Numbered from the stretch's first letter, positions 4,627-54,884 are shown. The stretch: 64,000 bases of DNA from an uncultured Bacteroidales bacterium (GCA_963789465.1 CAWBLL010000016.1:135544-199543), one strand, 5' to 3'. Notes: generated by a model from the letters alone, not told the origin. Translations and numbers: made by a program.

Positions 4627-6975
4627 TCAGTATCTGTATCTCCTAGAGTTTTCTCCCTGCGGATTTTGTTTCTTGACCTTATCGCAATCAAGTTCCCAGT
4701 TAAAGTCTGCAGGTCGCTCAAACTCATCAGTCTCCATAATTCCAAACTGAGGATCATTATAAACTTTTCTGAGAAATATAGCGAAGATCGGTAATGCCAT
4801 ACTTGCTCCCTGTCCTTCATGAAGAGTTTCAAAATGAATTGCCTGGTCTTCCCATCCGCTCCATACACCACCTACAAGGTTAGGCGTGACTCCCATAAAC
4901 CAGCCGTTGGAATTGTTCTGAGTTGTACCGGTTTTGCCGCCTATCTGGTTCCTCAGATTGTACGGTTCATTGCGCAATCTTCTTCCTGAACCTGTAAGCA
5001 CTACACTCTGAAGGAGGTTAAGCATCAGGTATGCATGCTCTTCAGTCAGAACCTCTTCGATCTTCGGAGTGAATCTTGAGATCGTATTGCCATTTTTGTC
5101 CTCTATGCGGGTAACATACATCGGCCTTGTATAAACGCCTTTATTTGCAAAGGTGCCATAGGCGCCCACCATCTCCTCAAGCTTTATATCAGAGGTGCCC
5201 AGGAAAATGGACGGAACAGGGTCAATAAAACTCCGTATGCCCATCCTGTGCATGAGGTCCGTAACGGCTGTAGGTTTGAACTGCTCCATCAGCCATGCGG
5301 AAATATAATTTTCCGATTGTGCAAGACCCCATTTAAGCGTTACCATCTTTCCGTGATATTCCTTGGGCCCGGAGCTTCTGGGAGTCCAGGGAATGGAATC
5401 GCCCACATCGAACGATCTGGGTATGTCCTCAACCTCATAACAGGGTGAATAACCGTTCTGAATAGCAATCGTATACAGGAATGGCTTTATCGTACTCCCG
5501 ACCTGCTTTTTCTGTGAGGTTACAGCATCCCATTTAAAATACCTGAAATCGGGTCCGCCCACATATGCCTTCACATATCCGTTGTGGGGATCTTCAACCA
5601 TAAATGAGGATCTGATGAAATATTTGTAGTACCTGAGTGAGTCCAGAGGAGTCATTATCGTATCCCTCTCCCCCTTCCACGAAAATACTCTCATCTTTAC
5701 CGGGGTATTGAATGCAAGCATGATTGAATCTTCCGGAACACCGGCCAGCTTCATGGAATAATACCGGTCCGTCCTCTCCACGGAAGACATCATGATCTCA
5801 TCGACCTCCTTTTTAGTGAGATCATCAGAATAGGGTGGATTTTTGAAACTCCTTGCCCTTCGGTAAAAGTCGGGCTGGACCTCATTTGAAAGATGTTCCG
5901 TAACAGCCTCTTCGGCATATTTCTGCATCTTTGAATTGATGGTAGTGTAGATCTTCAATCCATCCTTATATATATCGTATGGTGTACCGTCAGGCTTTTT
6001 ATTTTTAATGCACCATCCATAAAGGGGATTATTATCCCATTCCCAAAAGGCATCCTGGTACGATGATTCCCTGACATACTTGTTCCTGTCAGGTTCCGGC
6101 TTCCTCATAGTGCTCCTGATATATTCCCGGAGGTAGGTTGCGAGCCCGGAGTTGTGGTCCTCAATCCTGAAATCGGTCTCAATAGGCAGCAACTCAACGG
6201 AGTCGGCCGTCTCAGAGGTAATATATCCGTATTTTGCCATCTGCGACAGCACTGTGTTGCGGCGCTGCAGCATCAGGTCAGGATTTCTCACCGGGTTGTA
6301 CCTGGTAGAGGCTTTGAGCATTCCGACCAGTACTGCAGCCTGTTGAAGATTGAGTGAATCGGGTGCAGAATTGAAATAAACTCTGGCCGCTGACTTGATA
6401 CCTATTGCATTATAGCTGAAGTCGAATTTGTTCAGGTACATGGTTATTATCTCTTCCTTCGTATAGCTTCGCTCAAGCTTGACAGAGGTCTGCCACTCCT
6501 TGAATTTAGCAACTCCCAGTTTCACTTTCTGCATAAAGGCTGAATTTTTTGCCGTGTCCCTCGGGTAAAGCTGTTTTGCCAGCTGCTGTGTTATGGTACT
6601 TCCGCCGCCGGTGCTCTGCCCCAGAAGAATAGTACGTATGCCCGCTCTTGCCAGCCCGCGAATGTCAATGCCTGAATGACGATAATAACGGATATCTTCA
6701 GTTGCTATAAGAGCATTGACAAGATAAGGTGAGATATGTTTGAAATCCGTCCATGTCCTGTTCTCAATGCTGATCTTCCCCAGGAGGACGCCATCTTCGG
6801 AAAAAACCTCGGCGGCAAGGTAATATTCCGGATTCTCAAGCTCTTCAAATGAAGGCATAGGACCGAGCTTGCCCCTTGATATAAGTATAAAAATTATTGT
6901 GATGACCACAAAGGGCAAAATGACAAGAACCCAGAACCCTATAAGATATTTTTTATTGTCTGTATAACCTTTCAT
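4627..6975 (-). CDS. mrcA: penicillin-binding protein 1A (bifunctional transglycosylase/transpeptidase)
   Basis: 782 aa. N-terminal TM segment, glycosyltransferase motifs (EDIRYYRHSGID, GGSTITQQLAK), and STIKP and KTGTT transpeptidase motifs. Confidence 0.9.
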   Translation of the reverse strand: MKGYTDNKKYLIGFWVLVILPFVVITIIFILISRGKLGPMPSFEELENPEYYLAAEVFSEDGVLLGKISIENRTWTDFKHISPYLVNALIATEDIRYYRHSGIDIRGLARAGIRTILLGQSTGGGSTITQQLAKQLYPRDTAKNSAFMQKVKLGVAKFKEWQTSVKLERSYTKEEIITMYLNKFDFSYNAIGIKSAARVYFNSAPDSLNLQQAAVLVGMLKASTRYNPVRNPDLMLQRRNTVLSQMAKYGYITSETADSVELLPIETDFRIEDHNSGLATYLREYIRSTMRKPEPDRNKYVRESSYQDAFWEWDNNPLYGWCIKNKKPDGTPYDIYKDGLKIYTTINSKMQKYAEEAVTEHLSNEVQPDFYRRARSFKNPPYSDDLTKKEVDEIMMSSVERTDRYYSMKLAGVPEDSIMLAFNTPVKMRVFSWKGERDTIMTPLDSLRYYKYFIRSSFMVEDPHNGYVKAYVGGPDFRYFKWDAVTSQKKQVGSTIKPFLYTIAIQNGYSPCYEVEDIPRSFDVGDSIPWTPRSSGPKEYHGKMVTLKWGLAQSENYISAWLMEQFKPTAVTDLMHRMGIRSFIDPVPSIFLGTSDIKLEEMVGAYGTFANKGVYTRPMYVTRIEDKNGNTISRFTPKIEEVLTEEHAYLMLNLLQSVVLTGSGRRLRNEPYNLRNQIGGKTGTTQNNSNGWFMGVTPNLVGGVWSGWEDQAIHFETLHEGQGASMALPIFAIFLRKVYNDPQFGIMETDEFERPADFNWELDCDKVKKQNPQGENSRRYRY

Positions 6976-7094: not shown

Positions 7095-9398
7095 ATGATT
7101 GAAAATCTTGTAATTGTTGAGTCGCCCGCCAAGGCGAAAACCATCGAAAAATTTCTCGGAAAGGATTTCCGCGTGGTCTCCAGTTTCGGCCATATCCGGG
7201 ATCTGTCGAAGAAAAATCTTGGTATTGAAATTGATAAAAATTTCACCCCTGTCTATGAGATCCCGAAAGAGAAATCAAAGGTGGTTGCTGAACTGCGCAA
7301 AGCTGCTGCAGGATCAAAAAATGTATGGATCGCCTCTGATGAGGACCGGGAAGGAGAGGCTATTGCATGGCACCTTGCAAATGTTCTGAACCTTGATCTA
7401 AGCACTACAAAAAGAATTGTGTTCCATGAAATAACAAAGGAAGCCATTTCGGCTGCAATTGAAAATCCGAGGCTTATTGATATGAACCTTGTGAATTCCC
7501 AGCAGGCCCGGCGTATACTCGACAGGCTTGTCGGCTTCGAAATCTCACCTGTCCTGTGGAAAAAGGTTCAGCCAGCCCTCTCAGCCGGAAGGGTTCAGTC
7601 TGTTGCTGTCCGCCTGATAGTCGACAGGGAACGGGATATTATCTCATTCGAAACTGAATCAGCATTCCGTGTTACTGCGATATTCAATATCCGTGGATCA
7701 GAGAGTGAAAATGCCATTCTGAAGGCAGAAGCAACAAAAAGGTTCACCGGGGAAAAGGAGGCAATGGCATTTCTGGAGCTTTGCAATGGCGCTGACTTCT
7801 CTGTTGCCGGCATCAGCATCAAGCCCGGGACCAGATCTCCCGCACCGCCATTTACTACCTCCACCCTTCAGCAGGAAGCCTATCGCAAACTTGGGTTTTC
7901 AGTTGCCCAGACAATGGCAGTGGCTCAGAAACTTTACGAAGCCGGTAGAATAACTTATATGAGAACTGATTCCACCAACCTCTCAAAAATGGCTCTGTCC
8001 AAATCCCGTGAGGTAATCATATCAGAATTTGGTGAGAAGTATTCAAGAACCAGACAGTTCAAGACAAAGACCCAGGGAGCACAGGAGGCACACGAGGCTA
8101 TCCGCCCTGCTTACCTGGATAATCCTGAAACTACAGGCAGCCAGAATGAGAAAAGACTTTATGAACTTATCTGGAAAAGGGCCATTGCATCACAGATGGC
8201 TGATGCTGAGATAGAAAAAACCTCAATATCAATAGATATGAGCAACTCTCCCGTGACTTTCCAGGCAAACGGTGAGGTTATTAAATTTGACGGGTTTCTG
8301 AGGGTATACACCGAATCAACAGACCAGGAAAACCCGGATGAAGAGAGATATGTAATTCCTCCTGTAAAGAAAGGCATGCAGCTGGACGATGAAAATGTAA
8401 CGGCAACACAGAAATTCACGGCAGCTCCTCCCAGATACACCGAAGCAAGCCTGGTGAAAAAACTAGAGGAGCTTGGAATCGGAAGACCTTCAACTTTTGC
8501 GCCCACAATTTCAACCATCCAGAACCGTGGTTATGTTTCCCGTGAAGACAGACCCGGAGAGAAACGCCAGATTAAAATACTAACTCTTAATAATGGCAAG
8601 ATAACCGCTACTGAAAAGACTGAGATAGCCGGAAAAGAAAAATCCAAGCTCTTTCCTCAGGATATTGGAATGATCGTAAATGACTTCCTGATTGAAAATT
8701 TCTCGGATATTGTAGATTACAATTTCACTGCTGATGTGGAAGAGCAGTTTGATGAGATAGCACTTGGCAATCTCATATGGACGAAAATGCTCGATAAATT
8801 TTACAACCCTTTTCATAAAACAGTTGTAAGTACGCTGGAGAAGAAGGAGAGAAAGACCGGAAGCAGAGTCCTGGGGAACCATCCCGAGACCGGGGAACCC
8901 GTAACTGTCAGAATGGGAAGATTTGGCCCGGTGGCCCAGATAGGCGATTCAGGAAATGACGAAAAACCCAGATTTGCAAGTCTGACAAAGAACCAGCTCC
9001 TTGAGACGATCACCCTGGCCGAGGCACTCGATCTTTTCAGGCTGCCAAGGTCACTCGGAGAATATGATAACGACCAGATGGTGGTTGGAATTGGTAAATT
9101 CGGGCCATATGTCAGATATAAAAGCAAGTTTTATTCCCTCAAAAAGGGTGTGGATGATCCATATATCCTTACATTTGACAGAGCGGTAGAGATTATCCTT
9201 GAAAAGAATGAGAACGACAAAAAGAAAGTGCTGAAGGATTTTGGTGAAATCAGGCTTCTGAACGGCAGATACGGACCTTACCTGGTTAAGGATAAAAAAA
9301 ATTACCGGCTGCCTAAAGGTGCTGATGCAGAAAAACTTACTAAGGAGGATTGTATCAGTATCATAGAAAAAATTGATAAAACAACCAAGAGCTCATAA
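7095..9398 (+). CDS. topA: DNA topoisomerase I
   Basis: Toprim N-terminus (LVIVESPAKAKTIEKFLG) and ITYMRTDS active-site Tyr motif. The ORF opens at 7050; the ATG at 7095 (MIENLVIVESP) fits the family N-terminus. Confidence 0.95.
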   Translation: MIENLVIVESPAKAKTIEKFLGKDFRVVSSFGHIRDLSKKNLGIEIDKNFTPVYEIPKEKSKVVAELRKAAAGSKNVWIASDEDREGEAIAWHLANVLNLDLSTTKRIVFHEITKEAISAAIENPRLIDMNLVNSQQARRILDRLVGFEISPVLWKKVQPALSAGRVQSVAVRLIVDRERDIISFETESAFRVTAIFNIRGSESENAILKAEATKRFTGEKEAMAFLELCNGADFSVAGISIKPGTRSPAPPFTTSTLQQEAYRKLGFSVAQTMAVAQKLYEAGRITYMRTDSTNLSKMALSKSREVIISEFGEKYSRTRQFKTKTQGAQEAHEAIRPAYLDNPETTGSQNEKRLYELIWKRAIASQMADAEIEKTSISIDMSNSPVTFQANGEVIKFDGFLRVYTESTDQENPDEERYVIPPVKKGMQLDDENVTATQKFTAAPPRYTEASLVKKLEELGIGRPSTFAPTISTIQNRGYVSREDRPGEKRQIKILTLNNGKITATEKTEIAGKEKSKLFPQDIGMIVNDFLIENFSDIVDYNFTADVEEQFDEIALGNLIWTKMLDKFYNPFHKTVVSTLEKKERKTGSRVLGNHPETGEPVTVRMGRFGPVAQIGDSGNDEKPRFASLTKNQLLETITLAEALDLFRLPRSLGEYDNDQMVVGIGKFGPYVRYKSKFYSLKKGVDDPYILTFDRAVEIILEKNENDKKKVLKDFGEIRLLNGRYGPYLVKDKKNYRLPKGADAEKLTKEDCISIIEKIDKTTKSS

Positions 9399-9404
9399 AT
9401 AATT

Positions 9405-10574
9405 ATGGTAGACCTGAATGATTATTTCAATCCTGTCAGCATTGAGGAACCTGTTTTTGAGCATCTCACCAGGCAGGCAGGTTTTGCGCACAGTATCACC
9501 ATTCATACCGAGAACTATACAATCAGGGACCTGAGTAAATTCAAGATAGCTCTGCTGGGAGTGCCCGATGGGAGGAATTCACCTGATAACGGTTCGGTAA
9601 AGGGACCTGATATGGTGAGGTCACAATTATATAAACTATCCAAGGTTCCCGGGAAATCCAGGATAATTGATCTGGGGAATATGAAGCAGGGAGTTACCTT
9701 CGGCGATACACTGGCAGGTCTCACTGATATACTGGTACAGATGCTTCACGAAAATCTGTTCCCGGTGATCATAGGTGGCAGCAGCGCCCTGGTACCGGCC
9801 ATCGACAATGCATTTACCCAGACCGGACTAAGGTACACCCTCATAGCTGTTGATTCACGAATTGATTATAACAATGAAAGAAAAGAGGCTGATTCCTGTA
9901 ACTACCTCAATGCAATTCAGAACAACCACAAGAGTACATTTGATCAGTATATAAATATCGGTTACCAGACCTACCTGAACGATCAGCAGGTTATAAACCG
10001 TTTTTTGAAGCGGGGTGCTGATCTTGTCAGGATCGGGGATGTCAGGCAGGCCATATATCTAACAGAACCACTGTTCAGGGATTCGGATGTGGCAATCTTT
10101 GATATGTCGGCGGTGCGCCAGTCAGAATCTCCCGGTACATTCGCCCCCTCCCCCAACGGTTTTTACGGAGAAGAGATCTGCCTGCTTTCACGATATGCGG
10201 GTATTTCCGATAAGCTGAAAATGTACGGGCTCTTCGATGTAAATCCGGAATTTGACATCAGGTCACAAACAGCAGGGCTGGCAGCACAGATCCTGTGGTT
10301 CTTCCTCGAAGGATTCTCGCAGAAACAATATGAAACACCCGTACTGAATATTGGAAATTCAGGCAGGTTTATCAAGTATCATGTCAGACTGACTGATCTT
10401 GGGGAAGATATGATATTTATTAAAAGCAATATGACAGACAGGTGGTGGATCGAACTCCCTGCCGGCGACGATAACAACGTTTATGTTGCATGTTCTCACG
10501 AGGATTACCTCAGGGCAAACAGGAACGAAGTCCCTGAAAGATGGGTCAAGGCCGTTGAAAGATTAAAATCATAG
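9405..10574 (+). CDS. arginase/formimidoylglutamase-fold family protein (metal-ligand motifs apparently degenerate)
   Basis: 389 aa. The layout resembles the arginase family (IIGGSSALV, VDSRIDY, FDMSAV...SPGTFAPSPNGF), but the GGDHS, DAHxD and DxD ligands are substituted. Confidence 0.55.
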   Translation: MVDLNDYFNPVSIEEPVFEHLTRQAGFAHSITIHTENYTIRDLSKFKIALLGVPDGRNSPDNGSVKGPDMVRSQLYKLSKVPGKSRIIDLGNMKQGVTFGDTLAGLTDILVQMLHENLFPVIIGGSSALVPAIDNAFTQTGLRYTLIAVDSRIDYNNERKEADSCNYLNAIQNNHKSTFDQYINIGYQTYLNDQQVINRFLKRGADLVRIGDVRQAIYLTEPLFRDSDVAIFDMSAVRQSESPGTFAPSPNGFYGEEICLLSRYAGISDKLKMYGLFDVNPEFDIRSQTAGLAAQILWFFLEGFSQKQYETPVLNIGNSGRFIKYHVRLTDLGEDMIFIKSNMTDRWWIELPAGDDNNVYVACSHEDYLRANRNEVPERWVKAVERLKS

Positions 10575-10681
10575 TTTCATGATCTCTCTCATGTCGCCTC
10601 CCGGGCCCCTTCGTTTCCTTTTGTCAAAGATAATGATACACTCATCAAAAGAGATCGTTTACAAGGGTAAATAATTAACAC

Positions 10682-10689
10682 TAAATTTG
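10682..10689 (+). promoter_or_regulatory. candidate -7 promoter element (TAnnTTTG)
   Basis: TAAATTTG lies 69 nt upstream of the porP-like ATG, ahead of the T9SS operon. Confidence 0.35.
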
Positions 10690-10758
10690 TAAAGGATTTA
10701 GATTTTTATTTATTTTACTCGTTCAACTAACATGTGAACTGCATCTGCAAATAAAGAG

Positions 10759-11703
10759 ATGAAGAAACTTACTGTCGCAGCTCTTTTATTAATCCTGGTA
10801 GCCTACCCTGTCTTCTCACAGCAGGATCCGTTATCCAGTCAGTATATGTTCAATACCCTGACATATAATCCCGGTGTTGCGGGTGTTTCAGGTATGATTT
10901 GCGCCACGGCGATTAACCGCCAGCAATGGGTAGGATTCAAGGGCGCTCCCTCCACAACGGTATTCAATATAAGTGCTCCGGTAAAACCTTTCAAAATACC
11001 GAGCGGTGCCGGTTTGCTTGTTGAGAGCGACAATGTGGGTTTTGACAAGGACATCAATATTTCCGCCTCCTATTCTTATCATCTCCAGTTAGGGCAGGGG
11101 ATCCTCGGCATGGGATTCAATGCAGGGATGATAAATAAAACTATTAACCCGACCTGGGAAATACCTACCGGAGACACTCATACGCCCGCTTCAGGAGATC
11201 CGCTGATACCTGAAAACAAGGAAAGTTATGTTGCCTTCGATGCCGGACTGGGGCTTTACTTTAAAACTGACAAGTATTATGCATCACTCTCTGTAACCCA
11301 TATCAATCAACCCAAAATAAAATTCAGTAAAGGAACACCATATATAAGCAGACATTACTATCTGACAGCCGGATACACACTGCAGTTGCCCGATCCGTCA
11401 CTGGAACTGCTTCCATCAGTTTTTGCCTTCAGCGACGGAAAAGTTATGCAATTTGATGTAACAACACTAATCAGATACAATAAAAAAGTATGGGGTGGCG
11501 TTTCATACAGATATGGCGATGCACTGGTTGGAATGATCGGCTTGGAATTGTTTAACGGGATCAGGTTGGGCTATGCCTACGACTTTACTATGTCAGAAAT
11601 GGGAAAAACCAGTAATGGGTCGCATGAATTTATGGTTAACTATTGTTTTGATTTGGGCCTTGGCAAAAGCCCCACGAAATATAAAAGCATCAGATTCTTA
11701 TGA
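10759..11703 (+). CDS. porP: PorP/SprF family type IX secretion system membrane protein
   Basis: 314 aa. Signal peptide then QQDPLSSQYMFNTLTYNPGVAG, the characteristic PorP/SprF N-terminus. Sits immediately upstream of gldKLMN. Confidence 0.8.
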   Translation: MKKLTVAALLLILVAYPVFSQQDPLSSQYMFNTLTYNPGVAGVSGMICATAINRQQWVGFKGAPSTTVFNISAPVKPFKIPSGAGLLVESDNVGFDKDINISASYSYHLQLGQGILGMGFNAGMINKTINPTWEIPTGDTHTPASGDPLIPENKESYVAFDAGLGLYFKTDKYYASLSVTHINQPKIKFSKGTPYISRHYYLTAGYTLQLPDPSLELLPSVFAFSDGKVMQFDVTTLIRYNKKVWGGVSYRYGDALVGMIGLELFNGIRLGYAYDFTMSEMGKTSNGSHEFMVNYCFDLGLGKSPTKYKSIRFL

Positions 11704-37341: not shown

Positions 37342-37514
37342 TGATTTTGTATTTTCAATTTTTTTTACGTTCTTTGCATCCATTATATGATGGTGGACAG
37401 ATTTGAGCTGATTGCAACCACGGGAAAAAATGCTAAACCGCGTATGATTTCCTTTTATATATCGACTTAAAAATCCCCCACCTGTTTACTTACTAAAATT
37501 TAATATTAGGTATT

Positions 37515-38858
37515 ATGGGATATTTATTTACTTCAGAATCAGTTTCCGAGGGCCACCCGGATAAGGTAGCCGATCAGATATCAGACGCACTCCTCGATGA
37601 ATTTCTCAAGTGGGATCCCGAATCAAAAGTTGCCTGTGAAACATTCGTTACTACCGGACTGGTTGTCTGCGGGGGAGAAGTGAGGACGGAAGGATGGGTG
37701 GACGTTCAGGAGACTGCCCGCAAGGTTATCAGAAATATAGGCTATACCAAGGCTGAATACCGTTTTGATTGCGATTCCTGTGGTGTCATATCGACCATCC
37801 ATGAGCAATCGAGCGACATCAGGCAGGGTGTTGATCGTGAAAAACCTGAAGAACAGGGAGCCGGCGATCAGGGAATGATGTTCGGCTATGCATGCCGTGA
37901 GATGGATAACTTTATGCCCTTCACTATCGAGCTGGCCCACAGGCTTCTCCATGAACTTGCCGCGATAAGACGTGAGGGGAAAAAGATGAAATACCTGAGA
38001 CCCGACAGTAAATCTCAGGTTACCGTTGAGTACGACGACAATAATCAGCCTCTTCGTATCGATTCAATCGTTATCAGTACGCAGCATGATGAATTTATCC
38101 TTCCCAAAAATAAATCACAAGCTTCTGAAAAAGCTGCTGAAAAAGCCATGCAGGACCAAATCACTTCAGATGTGAAAGAGATACTTATACCTCGGGTAAA
38201 GAAGCTGCTTCCTGCCAGGATCCGGAAACTTTTCCAGAGCGATTTTAAGCTTTTTGTCAATCCTACCGGAAAATTTGTTATCGGGGGCCCGCATGGAGAT
38301 ACAGGACTGACAGGCAGAAAGATAATCGTTGACACCTATGGTGGCCACGGCGCACATGGCGGTGGAGCATTTTCCGGCAAAGACTCATCGAAAGTAGACA
38401 GATCGGCAGCCTATGCTGCAAGGCATATTGCCAAGAACATGGTTGCGGCAGGAGTCTGCGATCAGGTATTGATACAGGTGGCATATGCAATTGGCGTTGC
38501 TGATCCTGTCGGCCTCTATGTAAATACATACGGAACGGCAAAGGTCAGAGACAGTAAAGGTGCTGTGCTTCATGACGAAGAGATCTCAAAAAGAATTTCG
38601 AAGCTTTTTGATATGCGCCCATACTCCATTGTGAAGCGTTTTGGCCTGAAAGATCCTGTGTTTACAGCCACGTCGGCCTATGGCCATTTTGGTCGTGACA
38701 GCTATTCAGAGAATGTCGATGTATATTATGAGGTTCCCGGCGGCAAACCAAAAGGGAAGAATGCCAATGGGAAGAATGTTTATCAGAAAAAGGTAGAATT
38801 CTTTGCCTGGGAAAAGCTTGATTATGCAGACAGGATCAAGAAAGAATTCAAACTTTAG
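37515..38858 (+). CDS. metK: S-adenosylmethionine synthetase (long form)
   Basis: 447 aa. [32 protein letters not shown] and GGGAFSGKD motifs, plus an internal insert and a Lys-rich C-terminal extension. Confidence 0.95.
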
Positions 38859-45994: not shown

Positions 45995-47368
<1,374 letters not shown>

Positions 47369-47490
47369 TTAATTAATAAGAAGCTGGTTGGAAATCATAT
47401 TCCCTGCCTGCACATGCGCATAGGCATGAGCGGCATAATGAAGTTGTTGTGAGTGAGATGAATTGAATCCATTGTTTCAGTGTTAAATTT

Positions 47491-47597
47491 TTATTATCTC
47501 CCGGCTCTCCGGGATTAGGTTTTGGCACCGTTCTCCTTTTCTGAAGGAGTGGTTGCCAGGGTTTCACAGAGCCTAATCTCTTCACCCTTCTTAATAA
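47491..47597 (-). promoter_or_regulatory. SAM-I (S-box) riboswitch aptamer upstream of metY-hom-metH-metF
   Basis: The minus strand reads TTATTAAGAAGGGTGAAGAGATTAGGCTCTGTGAAACCCTGGCAACCACTCCTTCAGAAAAGGAGAACGGTGCCAAAACCTAATCCCGGAGAGCCGGGAGATAATAA. Elements: P1 TTATTA/TAATAA, GA kink-turn motifs, GGCAACC...GGTGCC (P3), P4 TCCCGG-AGAG-CCGGGA, and P2-loop TTAGG able to pair with CCTAA in J3/4. Confidence 0.85.
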
Positions 47598-47640
47598 AAA
47601 CCAAACACCCTTAAAGGAAGGAATATTTGATTTGTGGGAC

Positions 47641-47889: not shown

Positions 47890-49362
47890 ATGGAAAATAA
47901 ACTATTCATCTACAACACCCTTTCAAAAAAGAAGGAACTATTTAAACCTCTTCATGCTCCTTTCGTCGGTATTTATGTATGTGGTCCGACCGTTTACAGC
48001 AATCCGCACCTGGGACATGCACGACCAACCATAATATTTGACCTGCTCGACAGATACCTTCTTCATCTGGGCTATAAGGTCAGATATGTAAGGAATATAA
48101 CCGATGTCGGGCATCTGGAAGATGAAAATGCAGGAGAGGGCGAGGACAAAATAACAAAAAAGGCAAGGCAGGAACAACTTGAGCCTATGGAAGTGGTTCA
48201 GAAATACCTGAATACCTATCACCGGAACCTGGATCAGCTGAATACTCTTCAGCCATCGATAGAGCCCAGGGCAAGCGGACATATTATTGAGCAGCAGGAA
48301 CTTATAAAAATGATAATAGAAAATGGCTTTGCCTATGAAGTTAACGGTTCTGTATATTTCGATGTAGTAAAGTACAACGAAAAATATAATTACGGAAAGC
48401 TTTCAGGCAGGGTGCTGGAAGATCTTCAGAGCAATACCAGGATATTGGACGGACAGGATGAAAAAAGAAATCCCTTCGATTTTGCTCTCTGGAAGAAAGC
48501 CGCGCCGGAACATATAATGAAGTGGCCATCACCATGGAGCATAGGGTTTCCCGGATGGCACCTGGAGTGCTCAGCAATGAGCATAAAGTATCTCGGAGAA
48601 GTTTTCGATATACATGGAGGGGGAATGGATCTTCAGTTCCCTCATCATGAATGTGAAATTGCCCAGTCGACGGCTGCAAACGGAAAAGAATCGGTCCGCT
48701 ACTGGATGCATAATAACATGATTACCATAAACGGACAGAAGATGGCTCGTTCTCTTGGTAATTTTATTACTCTCGACGAGCTCTTCAAAGGAGAACATCC
48801 GCTCCTGGTTCAGCCATACAGCCCCATGACCGTCAGGTTTTTTATACTGCAGGCTCACTACCGCAGCACAATCGATTTCTCTAATGAGGCCCTCCAGGCC
48901 GCAGAAAAGGGTCTACAGAAACTTCTAAAGGCTACGGCTACTCTTGGAAAACTAAAAGTATCTGAATCAACTACTTTCGATGTCGGACAACTGAAGGAAA
49001 AATGTTATGAAGCAATGGATGACGACCTGAACAGCCCTGTCCTTCTCTCATATCTTTTTGAAGCAGTCAGGTTCATAAATTCCGTTGCCGATGGAAATGA
49101 AAAAATCGATCAGGCAAGTCTCACCGGACTTAAGGAACTCCTCAATACCTTTATCTTTGATATCCTGGGGCTTAAGGATGAAACTAAAGAAAAAGAGGAT
49201 GAATTGCTTACCGGTAAACTGATCAATATGATAGTTGATCTGCGGCAGGATGCCAAAAACCGTAAGGAATGGGATATTTCTGATAAGATCCGCCAGACTC
49301 TCAGAGAGCTGGGAATAATTGTCAAAGACCGCAAGGACGGCGCTGACTGGGAGAGGGAGTGA
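47890..49362 (+). CDS. cysS: cysteine--tRNA ligase
   Basis: 490 aa. HLGHARP (HIGH), Zn-binding CGPTVY... and KMARSLGN (KMSKS). Confidence 0.95.
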
Positions 49363-49381
49363 TTTCTGTTGAGATGAGAGT

Positions 49382-49438
49382 TTTCCCTTCCCAGGAGAGC
49401 CTGTCCCGCTTCGGTGGGAGGCCAGGGGTGGGTTTAAA
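49382..49438. repeat. GC-rich hairpin element, copy 1 (REP-like)
   Basis: TTTCCCTTCCCAGGAGAGCCTGTCCCGCTTCGGTGGGAGGCCAGGGGTGGGTTTAAA, with a CCCGC-TTCG-GTGGG core stem extended by GCC/GGC. Confidence 0.8.
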
Positions 49439-49489
49439 CTCAGATGTAACCAATGAACTCAGAAGCAGATAGGATGAACAATGGTAAGG

Positions 49490-49545
49490 TTCCCCTCCCA
49501 GGAGAGCCTGTCCCGCTTCGGCGGGAGGCCAGGGGTGGGTTTAAA
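49490..49545. repeat. GC-rich hairpin element, copy 2 (REP-like)
   Basis: TTCCCCTCCCAGGAGAGCCTGTCCCGCTTCGGCGGGAGGCCAGGGGTGGGTTTAAA. It is near-identical to copy 1, which lies 108 nt upstream, and ends 11 nt before the DUF559 ATG. Confidence 0.8.
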
Positions 49546-49556
49546 TATTTATTGGT

Positions 49557-49916
49557 ATGAAGAGAAAAATAATCCCATATAACCCTCATTTAAAAGATCT
49601 TGCAAAGGAGCTAAGAAGAAATATGACACTTTCTGAAGTATTATTATGGAAGGAACTTAGAAATAAAAATATGCTGGGTTATGATTTTGACAGGCAACGC
49701 CCGATAGGAAACTTTATAGTCGACTTTTATTGCAAAGATCTTGCCCTGGCTATTGAAATAGATGGCGACACACATATTTACAGATATGATTATGATGAAG
49801 AAAGACAAGAAGTTCTTGAAAAATCAGGGGTCAATTTCTTAAGATTTGAAGATATTGAAGTAAAAAAGAACATGATAAATGTCTTAAGGGTGATTGCGGA
49901 TTGGATTGAAAAAAAT
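49557..49916 (+). other. DUF559 (Vsr-like endonuclease fold) domain-coding portion of the long ORF
   Basis: About 120 aa match the usual stand-alone DUF559 protein length and motif order. No stop codon follows. Confidence 0.7.
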
Positions 49917-52751
49917 CAACCCACCCCTGACCCCTCCCAGGAGGGGAACCCTAAAGATGATAATCCGGCTAAAATGAATAAACCCACCCCTGACCACTCC
50001 AAGGAGGGGAACCCCAAAGATGATAATCCGGCTAAAATGATTAAACCCACCCCTGACCACTCCCAGGAGGGGAACCCTGAAGAAGGTAATCCGGCTAAAA
50101 TGATTAAACCCACCCCTGACCACTCCCAGAAGGGGAACCCTAAAGAAGATAATCCGGCTAAAATGATTAAACCCACCCCTGACCACTCCCAGGAGGGGAA
50201 CTCTAAAGAAGATAATCCGGTTAAAATGATTAAACCCACCCCTGACCACTCCCAGGAGGGGAACCCTAAAGAAGATAATCCGGCTAAAATGATTAAACCC
50301 ACCCCTGACCACTCCCAGGAGGGGAACCCTAAAGAAGATAATCCGGCTAAAATGATTAAACCCACCCCTGACCACTCCCAGAAGGGGAACCCTGAAGAAG
50401 GTAATCCGGCTAAAATGATTAAACCCACCCCTGACCACTCCCAGAAGGGGAACCCTAAAGATGATAATCCGGCTAAAATGATTAAACCCACCCCTGACCC
50501 CTCCCAGGAGGGGAACCCTAAAGAAGATAATCCGGCTAAAATGAATAAACCCACCCCTGACCACTCCCAGGAGGGGAACCCTAAAGAAGATAATCCGGCT
50601 AAAATGATTAAACCCACCCCTGACCACTCCCAGAAGGGGAACCCTAAAGAAGATAATCCGGCTAAAATGATTAAACCCACCCCTGACCACTCCCAGGAGG
50701 GGAACCCTGAAGAAGATAATCCGGCTAAAATGATTAAACCCACCCCTGACCACTCCCAGGAGGGGAACCCTAAAGAAGATAATCCGGCTAAAATGAATAA
50801 ACCCACCCCTGACCACTCCCAGGAGGGGAACCCTAAAGAAGATAATCTGTCGAAAATGAATAAACCAACAACTGCCCCATCCCAGGGAGACCACAGGGGA
50901 TATAAATATGTTTCTCCGACTATCATGGTCGGCAACGTCGCTCTTGGCGCTACCCACCCCATCCGTATCCAGTCGATGACAAATACAGACACTCTCGATA
51001 CTGATGCTTCTGTTGCCCAATGCATAAGAATCATTGAGGCAGGAGCTGATTTTGTGAGGCTTACAGCCCAGGGAGTCAGGGAGGCCGAGAACCTTGCCGC
51101 AATAAAGAAGGAACTGAGGAAAGCAGGATTCGACAATCCTCTGATTGCCGATATACATTTCAATCCAATGGCAGCTGAGACGGCTGCCCGGATCGTGGAA
51201 AAAGTAAGGATCAATCCGGGTAACTATGCCGATAAAAGAGCGACTTTCATAAACACTGACCTTACAGATGAGCAGTATAATGAAGAGCTTGAAAGAATAC
51301 ATGAAAAACTTCTGCCCCTGATAAATATCTGCAGGGAAAATAAAACTGTAATACGTATTGGAATAAACCATGGATCATTATCCGACCGTATAATGACCCG
51401 TTACGGAAATACCCCTTCGGGAATGGTTGTTTCCGCAATGGAATTCATAAAGATCTTCAGGAGCGAAAATTTTAATGATCTCGTGCTGTCGATGAAATCC
51501 TCAGATACCTCGGTCATGATAGAAGCGACCAGGCTTCTTGTTGGTGAATTGCAGGAAAGCGGATTGTCATATCCGCTTCATCTGGGTGTTACCGAAGCCG
51601 GGGAAGGAGAAGACGGAAGGATCCGCTCAGCAGCAGGGATAGGAGCCCTTCTTGCAGAAGGTATCGGCGATACGATCAGGATCTCCCTGTCGGAAGATCC
51701 GGAGTTTGAAATTCCGGTTGCAAAAAAACTAGCTGGCTATTATCCCAGGGATATAGCTGGCACAAACCAGGCAGGACCAATAGTTTATAAAACACCTGCA
51801 ATAAAACCGGATATCCTCAGGAGCGTTTCCGGTCCACTTGTAGTAATGAATATGACTTCCTATCCGGATTTTGACATAAAGGGCTACAGGGATGCCGGCT
51901 TCAATATAAATGAAAATTCAGGTGAGATCAAAAAAACTGACAGCTCGGCTGATTTCATTATCACCAGGGATGTACCCCGGATCTTGCCCGATGACGTTTC
52001 GATCATCCTTCCATTTAAAAAATGGTATGACCAGAAGGAAAATGAAAAGCTGTTTCCATTGTTCTCCCCTGAAACTTACCATGATGCTGCATTCAGGTCC
52101 CCCAAACTGAATTTTCTGCTTACCGGGTCACACTTTGACATCAGGTATCTCATGAAACCTGATCCTATGATAACGGTCATTGTATTTACCTTCAATCCCG
52201 ACACTGAAAAATATGCCCCTGACAAGTTTCTCAAAACCCTCGAAGAAAATAATCTTAACCACAATGTTCTCCTGAATCCGGTATTCCATGAAGCGGATTC
52301 CGACGATCTGAGGATAAAAGCGGCCGCACTTCTTGGCCGGTTCGTAATTGACAAAAGAGTAGCAGGGATATGTCTCCATAATATAGGCGAGATCAGCATG
52401 AAGGATGTAACGGCTATTTCATTTTCCATTCTCCAGTGCACAGAGACACGGATAACCAGAACATTGTATTTGTCGTGCCCAACATGCGGCCGCACAAAAT
52501 TCAATCTCCCGGAATCAGTCAGAAAAGTAAAGGAAGCTACAAGTCACCTCAAGGGTTTGAAAATTGCAGTTATGGGATGTATCGTTAACGGACCCGGCGA
52601 GATGGCAGGATCGGATTACGGATATGTAGGTGCTGCAGATGGCAAGGTACATATTTATCGCGGTACTGTTCCTGTACTGAAGAATATTCCGGAAAGTGAT
52701 GCGGCAGGTGAGTTGCTGAAGCTTATTGAACGGGACCTCTCAGGAAGCTGA
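49557..52751 (+). CDS. ispG: single open frame joining a DUF559 endonuclease-like domain, fifteen 21-aa repeats and IspG (HMBPP synthase)
   Basis: The 1064-aa ORF has no stop between its parts. N-terminus: LRRNMTLSEVLLWKELRN...FDRQRPIGNFIVDFYC...AIEIDGDTH...FLRFEDIEV (DUF559 pattern). Then the KPTPDHSQEGNPKEDNPAKMI repeats. Then PIRIQSMTNTDT...IADIHFNP...INPGN...CPTCGRT...GCIVNGPGE (IspG). Confidence 0.7.
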   Translation: MKRKIIPYNPHLKDLAKELRRNMTLSEVLLWKELRNKNMLGYDFDRQRPIGNFIVDFYCKDLALAIEIDGDTHIYRYDYDEERQEVLEKSGVNFLRFEDIEVKKNMINVLRVIADWIEKNQPTPDPSQEGNPKDDNPAKMNKPTPDHSKEGNPKDDNPAKMIKPTPDHSQEGNPEEGNPAKMIKPTPDHSQKGNPKEDNPAKMIKPTPDHSQEGNSKEDNPVKMIKPTPDHSQEGNPKEDNPAKMIKPTPDHSQEGNPKEDNPAKMIKPTPDHSQKGNPEEGNPAKMIKPTPDHSQKGNPKDDNPAKMIKPTPDPSQEGNPKEDNPAKMNKPTPDHSQEGNPKEDNPAKMIKPTPDHSQKGNPKEDNPAKMIKPTPDHSQEGNPEEDNPAKMIKPTPDHSQEGNPKEDNPAKMNKPTPDHSQEGNPKEDNLSKMNKPTTAPSQGDHRGYKYVSPTIMVGNVALGATHPIRIQSMTNTDTLDTDASVAQCIRIIEAGADFVRLTAQGVREAENLAAIKKELRKAGFDNPLIADIHFNPMAAETAARIVEKVRINPGNYADKRATFINTDLTDEQYNEELERIHEKLLPLINICRENKTVIRIGINHGSLSDRIMTRYGNTPSGMVVSAMEFIKIFRSENFNDLVLSMKSSDTSVMIEATRLLVGELQESGLSYPLHLGVTEAGEGEDGRIRSAAGIGALLAEGIGDTIRISLSEDPEFEIPVAKKLAGYYPRDIAGTNQAGPIVYKTPAIKPDILRSVSGPLVVMNMTSYPDFDIKGYRDAGFNINENSGEIKKTDSSADFIITRDVPRILPDDVSIILPFKKWYDQKENEKLFPLFSPETYHDAAFRSPKLNFLLTGSHFDIRYLMKPDPMITVIVFTFNPDTEKYAPDKFLKTLEENNLNHNVLLNPVFHEADSDDLRIKAAALLGRFVIDKRVAGICLHNIGEISMKDVTAISFSILQCTETRITRTLYLSCPTCGRTKFNLPESVRKVKEATSHLKGLKIAVMGCIVNGPGEMAGSDYGYVGAADGKVHIYRGTVPVLKNIPESDAAGELLKLIERDLSGS
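49917..50861 (+). repeat. 63-bp tandem repeat, 15 full units plus a degenerate 16th
   Basis: The unit is AAACCCACCCCTGACCACTCCCAGGAGGGGAACCCTAAAGAAGATAATCCGGCTAAAATGATT. 15 x 63 = 945 nt, counted unit by unit in the translation. Variants (H/P, E/K, D/E/G, I/N) are shuffled among the units. Confidence 0.95.
50856..52751 (+). CDS. ispG: IspG core from the last in-frame ATG of the repeat tract (candidate native start)
   Basis: MNKPTTAPSQGDHRGYKYVSPTIMVGNVALGATHPIRIQSMTN.... The distance from this Met to PIRIQSMT matches the usual IspG N-terminus. This is an alternative reading of the previous CDS. Confidence 0.5.
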   Translation: MNKPTTAPSQGDHRGYKYVSPTIMVGNVALGATHPIRIQSMTNTDTLDTDASVAQCIRIIEAGADFVRLTAQGVREAENLAAIKKELRKAGFDNPLIADIHFNPMAAETAARIVEKVRINPGNYADKRATFINTDLTDEQYNEELERIHEKLLPLINICRENKTVIRIGINHGSLSDRIMTRYGNTPSGMVVSAMEFIKIFRSENFNDLVLSMKSSDTSVMIEATRLLVGELQESGLSYPLHLGVTEAGEGEDGRIRSAAGIGALLAEGIGDTIRISLSEDPEFEIPVAKKLAGYYPRDIAGTNQAGPIVYKTPAIKPDILRSVSGPLVVMNMTSYPDFDIKGYRDAGFNINENSGEIKKTDSSADFIITRDVPRILPDDVSIILPFKKWYDQKENEKLFPLFSPETYHDAAFRSPKLNFLLTGSHFDIRYLMKPDPMITVIVFTFNPDTEKYAPDKFLKTLEENNLNHNVLLNPVFHEADSDDLRIKAAALLGRFVIDKRVAGICLHNIGEISMKDVTAISFSILQCTETRITRTLYLSCPTCGRTKFNLPESVRKVKEATSHLKGLKIAVMGCIVNGPGEMAGSDYGYVGAADGKVHIYRGTVPVLKNIPESDAAGELLKLIERDLSGS

Positions 52752-54884
52752 TCCATTCACCAGTCGGAAATCCAGCTGCTTCTTCTGCAGATCGGCCTTT
52801 ACGACCTCTATATTTACTCGGTCGCCCAGGGTATAAACTTTCCCCGTGGAACGGCCCTTAATGCAATAATTCTCCTCATCATATTCATAGAAATCATCTG
52901 CGAGTTCCCTGATATGAATCATCCCCTCGCACTGATTCTCAATTATCTCAACATAAATGCCCCATTCGGTAACTCCGGAGATAACTCCCTCAAATTCCAT
53001 TCCGGTTTTATCGCTCATATATTCAACCTGCTTGTATTTTACAGATGCTCTTTCTGCTTCGGAAGCAAGTCTCTCCATCTTTGAGGAATGCTGGCATAAT
53101 TTCTCGTACTTATCCTGCGATCCGGGGTTTTCGCTGGCAAGATAGGCCGACAACAGCCTGTGCACCATCATATCCGGATAACGGCGAATTGGAGAGGTGA
53201 AATGGGTATAAAACTTGAAAGCCAATCCGTAATGCCCTATGTTTTCAGTTGAATATATGGCTTTTGCCATGGAACGAAGCGCAAGGTTCTCAATAATATT
53301 CTGCTCCTTTTTCCCTGCTACTGATGTCAGCAATTTATTCATTGCCTTTGGAAGTGACGACTTTTCACCATCACCAAGCTTATAGCCGAAGCGGGTAATG
53401 AAATGGCTGAAATTACTAAGTTTCTCCGGATCCGGCTTATCATGAATACGGTATACAAATGTTTTGCCTTTCAGCTTTTTGCCGACATATTCAGCGACAT
53501 GCCTGTTTGCAAGAAGCATGAATTCCTCAACCAGCTGATTGGCAGTTCCCATATCACGGAATTTAATCCCCACGGGCTTCCCGTTCTCATCAAGATCAAA
53601 CCTGATCTCAATCTTTTCAAAGGCAAAGGCTCCGGCGGCAAATCGCTTTGTCCTGAGCTGCTGGGCAAGCCTGTGAAGGACGAGAACCTCATCCTTCATG
53701 TCGCCGTCACCAGTATCTATAACCAGTTGTGCCTCAGCATATGAAAACCTTCTGTCTGAGTTAATTATTGTCCTCCCAAACCACTCATTCACCACCTCTG
53801 ATTTGTCATTCAATTCAAAAACAGCTGAATAGGTAAGCTTGTCTTCAGAAGGATTCAAAGAGCAGATATGATTTGAAAGTCTTTCGGGCAACATTGGCAC
53901 AACCCTGTCTACAAGATATACGGAAGTAGCCCTCTGTTTGGCTTCTTCCTCAACAAGTGAGGCTTCCTTTACATAGTAAGTCACATCTGCAATATGCACA
54001 CCGACTTCCCGGTTCCCGTTATCAAGTTGACGCAATGAAAGTGCATCATCAAAATCCTTTGCATCAGCAGGATCGATGGTAAAAGTCGGTATCTGTCTGA
54101 AATCGCGTCGCGATTTTATCTCATTTTCGCTTATCTCCCCTTTTATCTGTTCAGCATCGTGTTCAACTTCCTCTGTAAAACTGTACGGAAGCTCGAATTC
54201 TGCCAGGATAGCATGCATCTCTGTCTCATGAAGTCCCGGATATCCCAGAACATTAATGATCTCAGCCACAGGATTTTTTGATTTTGAATCCCAGTCGACA
54301 ACCCTGGCGACAGCTTTTTGTCCCTGAAGTGCACCATTGAGTTTTGAACTTGGAATAAAAAGATCGAAGGGCATGTTTTTATTATCCGGGATGAGAAATG
54401 CAAAGTTTGGCATAACCTCAACTGTTCCGACAAAGGATGTCCTCCATCTCTCAATAATTTCCACAACCTCTCCCTCAGGTCTGGATCCTTTACGCCTGGC
54501 ATACAGCCTTACCTTTACTTTATCACCATGAAGGGCTGTTTTAAGGTTATTGGCTGCTACAAAAACATCATCCTCAAGATCCTCGGTTTTGATGTATCCG
54601 GAACCCATCCTGGTCATATCTACCGTACCTGTTATAAAACCCTTGCCAGTCTTGATCTTGTATTTTCCGGGATAGACCTCCGTAATACTGCCCTTTTCTG
54701 CATTTTCAGCCAGAATTTCTGAAACCATCTGCCTCATGGAAGGATCGGTAATATTCAGTCGTTTGGCTATTTGCTTGTAGTTTACTCCCTGTTCGGGATA
54801 TTTAGATAAGGCAGAAAGTATCTGGTCCGTAAGAACTTCTCTTGAAACACTATAACTTTTACCACCTCTTCCCTTTTTACTCAT
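52740..54884 (-). CDS. rnr: ribonuclease R
   Basis: 714 aa. N-terminal HTH-like region, RNB domain (IDPADAKDFDDALS, YLVDRVVPMLP) and a C-terminal S1 domain. Confidence 0.9.
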   Translation of the reverse strand: MSKKGRGGKSYSVSREVLTDQILSALSKYPEQGVNYKQIAKRLNITDPSMRQMVSEILAENAEKGSITEVYPGKYKIKTGKGFITGTVDMTRMGSGYIKTEDLEDDVFVAANNLKTALHGDKVKVRLYARRKGSRPEGEVVEIIERWRTSFVGTVEVMPNFAFLIPDNKNMPFDLFIPSSKLNGALQGQKAVARVVDWDSKSKNPVAEIINVLGYPGLHETEMHAILAEFELPYSFTEEVEHDAEQIKGEISENEIKSRRDFRQIPTFTIDPADAKDFDDALSLRQLDNGNREVGVHIADVTYYVKEASLVEEEAKQRATSVYLVDRVVPMLPERLSNHICSLNPSEDKLTYSAVFELNDKSEVVNEWFGRTIINSDRRFSYAEAQLVIDTGDGDMKDEVLVLHRLAQQLRTKRFAAGAFAFEKIEIRFDLDENGKPVGIKFRDMGTANQLVEEFMLLANRHVAEYVGKKLKGKTFVYRIHDKPDPEKLSNFSHFITRFGYKLGDGEKSSLPKAMNKLLTSVAGKKEQNIIENLALRSMAKAIYSTENIGHYGLAFKFYTHFTSPIRRYPDMMVHRLLSAYLASENPGSQDKYEKLCQHSSKMERLASEAERASVKYKQVEYMSDKTGMEFEGVISGVTEWGIYVEIIENQCEGMIHIRELADDFYEYDEENYCIKGRSTGKVYTLGDRVNIEVVKADLQKKQLDFRLVNGSAS

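Follow-up and report, generated by a model that had tools for sequence, protein, structure and literature searches.

How does an essential biosynthetic enzyme come to share one open reading frame (ORF) with a nuclease, and is the shared frame used? This question is raised by a locus in a stretch of 64,000 nt, here called the window, from an uncultured Bacteroidales bacterium (GCA_963789465.1, CAWBLL010000016.1:135544-199543). Positions 49557..52751 of its plus strand form a single reading frame of 1064 aa without a stop, in which a DUF559 endonuclease domain is followed by 15 repeat units of 63 nt and a full-length IspG. A preliminary description of this DNA, made from the sequence alone, had already read the three parts as one frame, and it had rightly cautioned that openness alone does not prove translation; the missing evidence came from comparative data. 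Based on the related loci described below, we propose that a DUF559 cassette bracketed by its own palindromic element probably inserted between cysS and ispG, that recombination between element copies would have given the in-frame fusion and the array, and that IspG may be made either as a continuation of DUF559 or from internal starts.

The two protein parts belong to known families. Residues 12-115 match the Pfam family DUF559 (PF04480; profile positions 3-106 of 109) at E 1e-28, scoring 99.8 bits where the cut-off is 20.6, and residues 455-1058 match GcpE/IspG (PF04551; 384 bits at E 7e-115) over positions 3-342 of the 343 in the profile. The nuclease part has Pfam matches only to DUF559 and REase_MTES_1575, both PD-(D/E)XK families. 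In a published classification, the structure 3hrl, Vsr and DUF559 were grouped in one clade, in which the homing endonuclease 3r3p was also placed (PMC3424549). Judged by its profile hidden Markov model score, its similarity to PDB entry 3hrl over residues 23-113 (E 8e-15) and the core VDF...E-x-D-G-x-x-H, translated here as IVDFYC...IEIDGDTH, the N-terminal 119 aa are a clear member of the DUF559/Vsr-like endonuclease family (3hrl; Escherichia coli Vsr, 1cw0; 3r3p). The IspG portion, the C-terminal 631 aa, is ordinary and full-length, with all Fe-S ligand motifs; the 4Fe-4S cysteine motifs CxxCGR and GC(I/V)VNGPGE read CPTCGR and GCIVNGPGE. No Hint or intein domain was matched by Pfam on the 1064-aa ORF, and no intron, structured RNA leader or riboswitch was found by Rfam at the DUF559-ispG locus.

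The closest genomes are uncultured Bacteroidales metagenome-assembled genomes, throughout which the order cysS-[DUF559]-ispG, followed by rnr on the minus strand, is kept. DUF559 itself is variable. It is absent from L002, L005, L006, L007 and L024, where cysS directly adjoins ispG; an orthologue lies between the two genes in L004 and L008; and L001 and L010 carry a second DUF559 type, only 43% identical, at the same spot. The comparison of the ispG 5' region that the preliminary description had suggested thus finds the DUF559 gene and the repeat variably present and the repeat varying in copy number. The ratio of non-synonymous to synonymous rates (dN/dS) of DUF559 has a median of 0.069, with dS above 1.2, is 0.06 against L008 and takes the same value in fused loci, indicating strong purifying selection on the domain. 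More than 5000 homologues of the window's DUF559 clade are found at E 1e-10 or better. Type-1 DUF559 genes of equal similarity also occupy a second conserved site (L082, L088, L096, L098, L105, L108, L113 and L116), between the gene of a protein of about 870 aa ending ...KGKTKSWKKVCAVIRN and a convergent 269-aa gene, a putative nucleoside phosphorylase named by reading its sequence. The downstream gene being convergent, no fusion has formed there.

The relatives provide the strongest argument that the frame can be used. Sixteen metagenome loci show the DUF559-ispG junction. In ten, a stop ends DUF559 and ispG has its own start; nine of these starts are ATGs placed 26-27 codons ahead of the motif [IV]R[IL]QSMT, and that of L095 lies further upstream in another frame. 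The other six (L084, L087, L093, L100, L111 and L115) are fused in frame through 1-6 element copies, and in L084, L087, L111 and L115 the stretch from the end of the domain to the IspG motif contains neither ATG nor GTG nor TTG. In the protein database, with sequences from JGI, ENA, NCBI and Logan, the fused proteins (638-805 aa) form 41 distinct clusters, of both DUF559 types and on contigs of up to 468 kb. Their linker lacks a methionine in 28 of 41. The nearest methionine is at least 45 aa before the IspG motif in 33 of 40 fused proteins and at least 100 aa before it, deep within DUF559, in 12 of 40. The IspG cysteine motifs are kept in all 41 and the DUF559 core motif in 40. In addition, IspG in fused loci has dN/dS values of at most 0.13, with dS saturated, which points to purifying selection on the enzyme. 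If an essential enzyme is under selection and lacks its own start, translation can only reach it by continuing from the upstream ORF. Therefore, the missing linker starts and the purifying selection on both domains argue that DUF559-IspG fusions are real genes in the relatives, and the fusion reading of the preliminary description gains its support from them. Our literature search found no work on DUF559 flanking elements or DUF559-IspG fusions, and the fusions in these uncultured Bacteroidales appear undescribed so far.

Fused and unfused states are interleaved on the IspG tree. A count of fusions on a neighbour-joining tree (at least 31 state changes) was judged unreliable; the combinations of DUF559 type with IspG type give at least 4-5 independent fusions. 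Where the two genes are unfused, the DUF559 ORF with its repeats usually ends between -4 and +79 nt from the ispG ATG; the DUF559 stop and the ispG start overlap as ATGA in L081 and L085 and are 3 nt apart in L109 and L114. This close spacing suggests translational coupling.

What joins the two parts is a palindromic element that belongs to the DUF559 gene. Each repeat unit consists of a 33-nt GC-rich core, AAACCCACCCCTGACCACTCCCAGGAGGGGAAC, and a 30-nt A-rich spacer. Two copies of 56 nt lie just 5' of DUF559, inverted relative to the units, 77-80% complementary to them and carrying a central hairpin insert. The consensus of the element, about 34 nt and GC-rich, is AAACCCACCCCT-nn-CCCCTCC-nnGG-AGGGGA. 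The 64-kb window contains 17-18 matches to the core, against 0.55-1.5 expected, and all are confined to the DUF559-ispG locus, which rules out a REP-like (repetitive extragenic palindromic) dispersed element; distant copies are also few in the 4-kb flanks of related loci. The preliminary description was right about a 63-bp tandem repeat; it had missed that the repeat is a DUF559-associated palindromic element, that inverted copies stand upstream and that the ispG leader holds a relic of a second element type.

The association was examined in 83 DUF559 loci: the window, L004, L008 and 80 loci retrieved from metagenomes with only the DUF559 domain as query. In 53 of them the gene is bracketed; a copy in inverted orientation precedes the ATG by about 30-40 nt, and one in direct orientation follows immediately on the domain. 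The two copies of one locus resemble each other more closely than non-self pairs do (25.6 vs 23.3 of 34 positions alike; reached in 0 of 5000 permutations). In the closest DUF559 proteins (70-89% identity) the C-terminus reads, without exception, ...DWIxKNKPTPxPSxEGN. This tail is the translated element, and many of the proteins have 2-7 tandem copies of it. The same genomes contain two further DUF559 lineages, each with a different inverted flanking element of its own. The flanking element is the obvious candidate for the DNA target of the predicted nuclease. Arrays of the element 5' of DUF559, which are non-coding, also amplify, with periods of 22-44 nt among which multiples of three are not favoured; tandem amplification is thus a property of the element.

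Two further observations concern the cassettes of relatives. A third DUF559 lineage stands 5' of cysS (L005 3983-4261, L081 1748-2026, L102 242-508 and L162 2820-3215, all on the minus strand, and L100 2-235); it is flanked by the inverted element AGCCCCCTTTAGGGGGTTGGGGGCA and its complement, has a tail ending ...SLSPL and is absent from the window. The L004 cassette has a duplicated DUF559 5'-end fragment 5' of the gene and a tandem duplication of 2 x 123 nt in its tail (5130-5180 and 5700-5930), so that duplication readily affects either end of the cassette.

In the window the amplification is extreme, with 15 copies compared to 1-6 in related fusions. Tandem Repeats Finder reports 15.1 copies of period 63 at 49918-50866, with 95% matches and 0% indels, and the consensus unit in the ORF frame is IKPTPDHSQEGNPKEDNPAKM. 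The copy number and the in-frame ATG of every unit are as previously described; the 15 ATGs run from 49974 to 50856 at a spacing of 63 nt. No stop interrupts the array in the ORF frame (+0) or in one of the minus frames. Another minus frame, formerly also counted as open, contains one stop at the edge, and the remaining frames have 14-75; the minus-strand ORFs over the array are 49884..51371 and 49916..51214. Fourteen sites vary among the units, and of the 15 informative pairs of sites six violate the four-gamete test. These violations support the mosaic of variants noticed earlier and, together with the copy numbers of 1-6 in relatives, the unequal recombination deduced from it. L163 (P0247) has 3-4 homologous 63-nt units ahead of its IspG, with the motif TAAAATGA and the methionine of TAAAATGAAT. 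The unit of the window is therefore an older module, which has been amplified here.

The origin of the shared frame can be read from the ispG leaders. Many stand-alone IspG proteins begin with MN(D)KPTPNPSREG..., the type-1 element, at the site equivalent to 50856 of the window, and 38 of the 120 closest IspG proteins have SPSQGDHRGS, the type-2 element, at an M-(9 aa)- start. The window carries both types, its last unit (ATG AAT AAA CCA ACA ACT) being joined to the type-2 relic, and the core TCC CAG G, common to both element types, is read in the same frame. We propose the following sequence of events. The 3' element copy of the cassette is always read as the C-terminal tail ...KPTPxPSxEGN, and with element copies in the same frame in the ispG leader, direct repeats flank the junction of the DUF559 stop and the ispG start. 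Deletion between direct copies would remove both the stop and the start and leave an in-frame fusion, while unequal crossover would generate tandem arrays of element and spacer. The unit amplified here also carries the ispG start context (AAAATGA), which would thereby have been copied 15 times. This recombination mechanism, read from sequence comparison, would give the shared frame a mechanistic cause in place of a one-in-three coincidence. In L001 (3507-3700) a type-2 cassette is present and the ispG ATG lies between two direct type-2 element copies (...GGGGGTCGCAATCATGAAGG...). This arrangement corresponds to that of the window's locus without the fusion, and it is the best candidate precursor.

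The transcript probably comes from cysS. The -7 promoter box of Bacteroidetes has the consensus TAnnTTTG. No such box is present on either strand at 49300-51000, and no terminator-like site was found on the plus strand between cysS and ispG, which makes co-transcription of ispG with cysS likely. A promoter inside the array was considered and rejected: the only near match between cysS and ispG is a relaxed box, TATGTTTC, at 50907-50914, and sigma-70-type matches are not enriched at the locus. The relaxed box stands 11 nt before a further in-frame ATG at 50925, which follows the 15 unit ATGs; a start there would give an IspG without the conserved YxS leader.

Ribosomes starting at 49557 meet no stop before 52749 and would yield the 1064-aa DUF559-linker-IspG protein. 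Since no stop comes between the two and DUF559 is under selection and translated, these ribosomes should make the fusion. Ribosomes starting at any of the 15 AAAAUG sites would yield IspG with 0-14 extra 21-aa units. The proximal ATG at 50856 lies inside the last unit, with no stop ahead of it, 35 codons before [IV]R[IL]QSMT, compared with 26-39 codons in stand-alone homologues. In Bacteroidia, A at -3 favours initiation, starts are chosen by upstream adenines and low structure, and extra AUGs near starts are normally avoided (PMC6847099). The unit ATGs have A at -3 and lie in an unpaired A-rich stretch in predicted folds, and the DUF559 ATG has G at -3. The folds of elements and units are no more stable than those of shuffled sequences (z +0.45 to -1.05), and the idea that hairpins block de novo initiation and force coupling was dropped, the predicted structures not being exceptional. 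The fusion and the ladder of IspG isoforms are both plausible in the window, and we do not rank them; the IspG N-terminus presumably tolerates such extensions.

Several points weigh against this interpretation. A normal IspG could arise from the ATG at 50856 by itself, and the array would then not have to be translated for viability. The variants among units are 12 non-synonymous and 2 synonymous, with no third-position bias, and give no sign of selection on the peptide; such a lack of constraint is expected of a young array, coding or non-coding. The fused share at the ispG locus (6 of 16) is near the one-in-three frame expectation that the preliminary description had raised. This part of the caveat holds, and the argument therefore rests on the absent start codons and on selection, not on frequency; as an account of why the frames agree, chance gives way to the same-frame element copies. 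Frame statistics as evidence of selection were dropped as circular, since the periods at the ispG locus, all divisible by three, share the homologous 63-nt unit. Mobility of the cassette is deduced from presence and absence at one site and from the second conserved site, no transposition footprint having been identified in these loci. Moreover, the organisms are all uncultured, their fusion proteins being predicted from sequence, and the copy number of the 945-nt array may be mis-assembled.

The alternative that survives best, though we regard it as unlikely, is that the array is a non-coding satellite ahead of a normal ispG, started only at 50856, with DUF559 silent or poorly initiated and the long ORF arising only because the unit length is a multiple of three. 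It would account for a unit that is stop-free in three of six frames, for the missing synonymous bias, for the G at -3 of the DUF559 ATG against the A at -3 of the unit ATGs (PMC6847099), and for stand-alone homologues that begin MNKP... at the equivalent site. However, DUF559 is intact and as strongly selected as its comparison with L008 indicates, no stop frees ribosomes before IspG, no promoter box or terminator separates the two parts, and in the 28 related fusions without a linker methionine translation of the linker is obligatory.

Somewhat less probable still is that the region where IspG translation starts was amplified adaptively, 15 in-frame AAAAUG sites with unstructured, A-rich surroundings raising ribosome loading after the cassette had cost ispG its promoter and start context, the fusion being incidental. 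Each unit does contain an ispG-like start context, the spacers are unpaired in the predicted folds, and the choice of starts in Bacteroidia by upstream adenines and low structure fits this idea (PMC6847099). However, relatives have 0-4 such ATGs and most fusions none, and the amplification of the non-coding arrays 5' of DUF559 makes selection unnecessary as an explanation. An assembly artefact, in which the array or its copy number is wrong and the true locus has a stop and a separate ispG as in L008 or L004, is very improbable: 945 nt of 95%-identical units are indeed hard for short-read assembly, and the public collections searched held no exact match to the 1064-aa protein, a scan of metagenomes for the unit junction giving 0 matches and no conspecific sequence, but the 14 variable sites keep a consistent register without indels, the parts would share a frame at any copy number, and the last unit joins ispG without a stop as in L163 and the 41 independent fusions.

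Among these readings we retain that of an inserted, element-bracketed cassette, and Table 1 collects the features of the locus.

Table 1. Features of the cysS-DUF559-ispG-rnr locus in window coordinates
Feature	Position	Strand	Evidence and remarks
cysS (cysteinyl-tRNA synthetase)	47890..49362	+	490-aa ORF; 74-86% identical to same-position CysS in relatives; Pfam tRNA-synt_1e in orthologous loci
Upstream element copy 1, long form with central hairpin insert, inverted relative to the units	49383..49438	+	Direct-repeat family D2; inverted pairs I16-I25, 77-80% complementary to the unit core
Upstream element copy 2, long form, inverted; ends 11 nt before the DUF559 ATG	49490..49545	+	Position about -30 to -40 from the ATG, filled in most related loci
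DUF559 (predicted Vsr-like PD-(D/E)XK endonuclease) coding region	49557..49913	+	Pfam; PDB 3hrl; 84-87% identity to L004/L008 orthologues; dN/dS 0.05-0.08
Tandem array, 15 units of 63 nt, each with a directly oriented short-form element of 33 nt (KPTPDHSQEGN) and a 30-nt A-rich spacer ending AAAATG	49914..50858	+	Tandem Repeats Finder; homologous unit in L163
Fifteen in-frame ATGs, one per unit, A at -3; possible internal IspG starts	49974..50858	+	The last, 50856, is the proximal start
Relic of second-type DUF559 element (APSQGDHRG) within the ispG 5' coding leader	50874..50900	+	Matches the type-2 element TCCCCCTCCCAGGGGGACCACAGGGGG of L001 and L010
ispG (GcpE, 4-hydroxy-3-methylbut-2-enyl diphosphate (HMBPP) synthase), full length	50856..52751	+	Pfam PF04551; 64-78% identity to L002-L008 and L010; cysteine motifs
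rnr (RNase R), convergent conserved downstream neighbour	52740..54884	-	Overlaps the ispG 3' end by 12 nt

The cassette resembles several known systems and differs from each. REP-RAYT systems (RAYT, REP-associated tyrosine transposase; also called REPIN systems) consist of an HUH/Y1 transposase gene and an element dispersed in hundreds of copies. The likeness lies in one small gene with inverted short GC-rich palindromes at its flanks that co-vary with the gene lineage; here, the gene encodes a PD-(D/E)XK nuclease instead of an HUH/Y1 enzyme, the element is found only at the flanks of the gene within 64 kb, and its 3' copy is translated. Inteins and homing-endonuclease genes are inserted within essential genes, and a Hint domain or an intron removes the insert. 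Similar to them, the cassette is a selfish-looking nuclease gene in frame with an essential gene and variably present at one exact site. It differs in being an N-terminal fusion, not an internal insert, without a splicing domain; the nuclease is presumably kept via a disordered linker, and homing is only hypothetical. Contingency loci phase-vary by slippage of repeats whose unit length is not divisible by three. The window shares with them a homogeneous array in or ahead of a coding region and signs of recombination among units. A phase-variable switch is ruled out, as a unit of 63 nt (3 x 21) never changes the frame; a change of copy number can alter the linker length or the number of starts, not turn the gene on or off.

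Within their own families, both proteins are unusual only at the junction. We know of no described DUF559/Vsr-like member with a cognate inverted palindromic bracket, an element-encoded tail or a fusion to a metabolic enzyme. Compared with the long Bacteroidetes-type IspG/GcpE (PF04551 and PF26540), which the window matches in length, Fe-S ligand motifs and conserved synteny, the start region is replaced by element-derived sequence, and the protein may carry 0-14 extra 21-aa units or the whole of DUF559.

Other observations were made around the locus. The 3' ends of ispG (+) and rnr (-) converge with a 12-nt overlap at 52740-52751 and are equally tight in L161 and L162. In L007 a second, inverted and divergent ispG and cysS (7761-10809; 34-54% identity) follow directly after the first and may be a real paralogous pair or a chimeric assembly. 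The 64-kb window also has two different S-adenosylmethionine (SAM) riboswitch classes, a SAM-I (S box) aptamer at 47488-47600 on the minus strand (78.8 bits), ahead of the ORF 45995..47299 (-), whose syntenic counterpart in L162 has the Pfam domain Cys_Met_Meta_PP, and a SAM-II long-loop aptamer at 37387-37446 on the plus strand (51.3 bits), ahead of the ORF 37515..38858.

The fusion in the window is a new combination of known kinds of parts. It is the most extreme example seen of a phenomenon more general than the preliminary description held. The lineage-specific inverted element with its translated 3' copy offers a concrete candidate target and a testable model of a nuclease acting on its own flanks. 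The recurrent welding of DUF559 onto IspG indicates that a repeat element is able to remodel the start region of an essential gene and would leave obligate fusion proteins in dozens of lineages, and it suggests that the enzyme tolerates large N-terminal additions. Public databases annotate these fusions simply as IspG, and the phenomenon is currently invisible there. It is tempting, if rather speculative, to regard the cassette as a previously unrecognised selfish nuclease that, repeatedly welded to ispG by recombination of its translated 3' element with an element relic in the host leader, makes the host depend on its start codon and probably on its transcript. Such addiction-by-fusion would be distinct from inteins and from toxin-antitoxin systems and, if true, would leave the host unable to delete the cassette.

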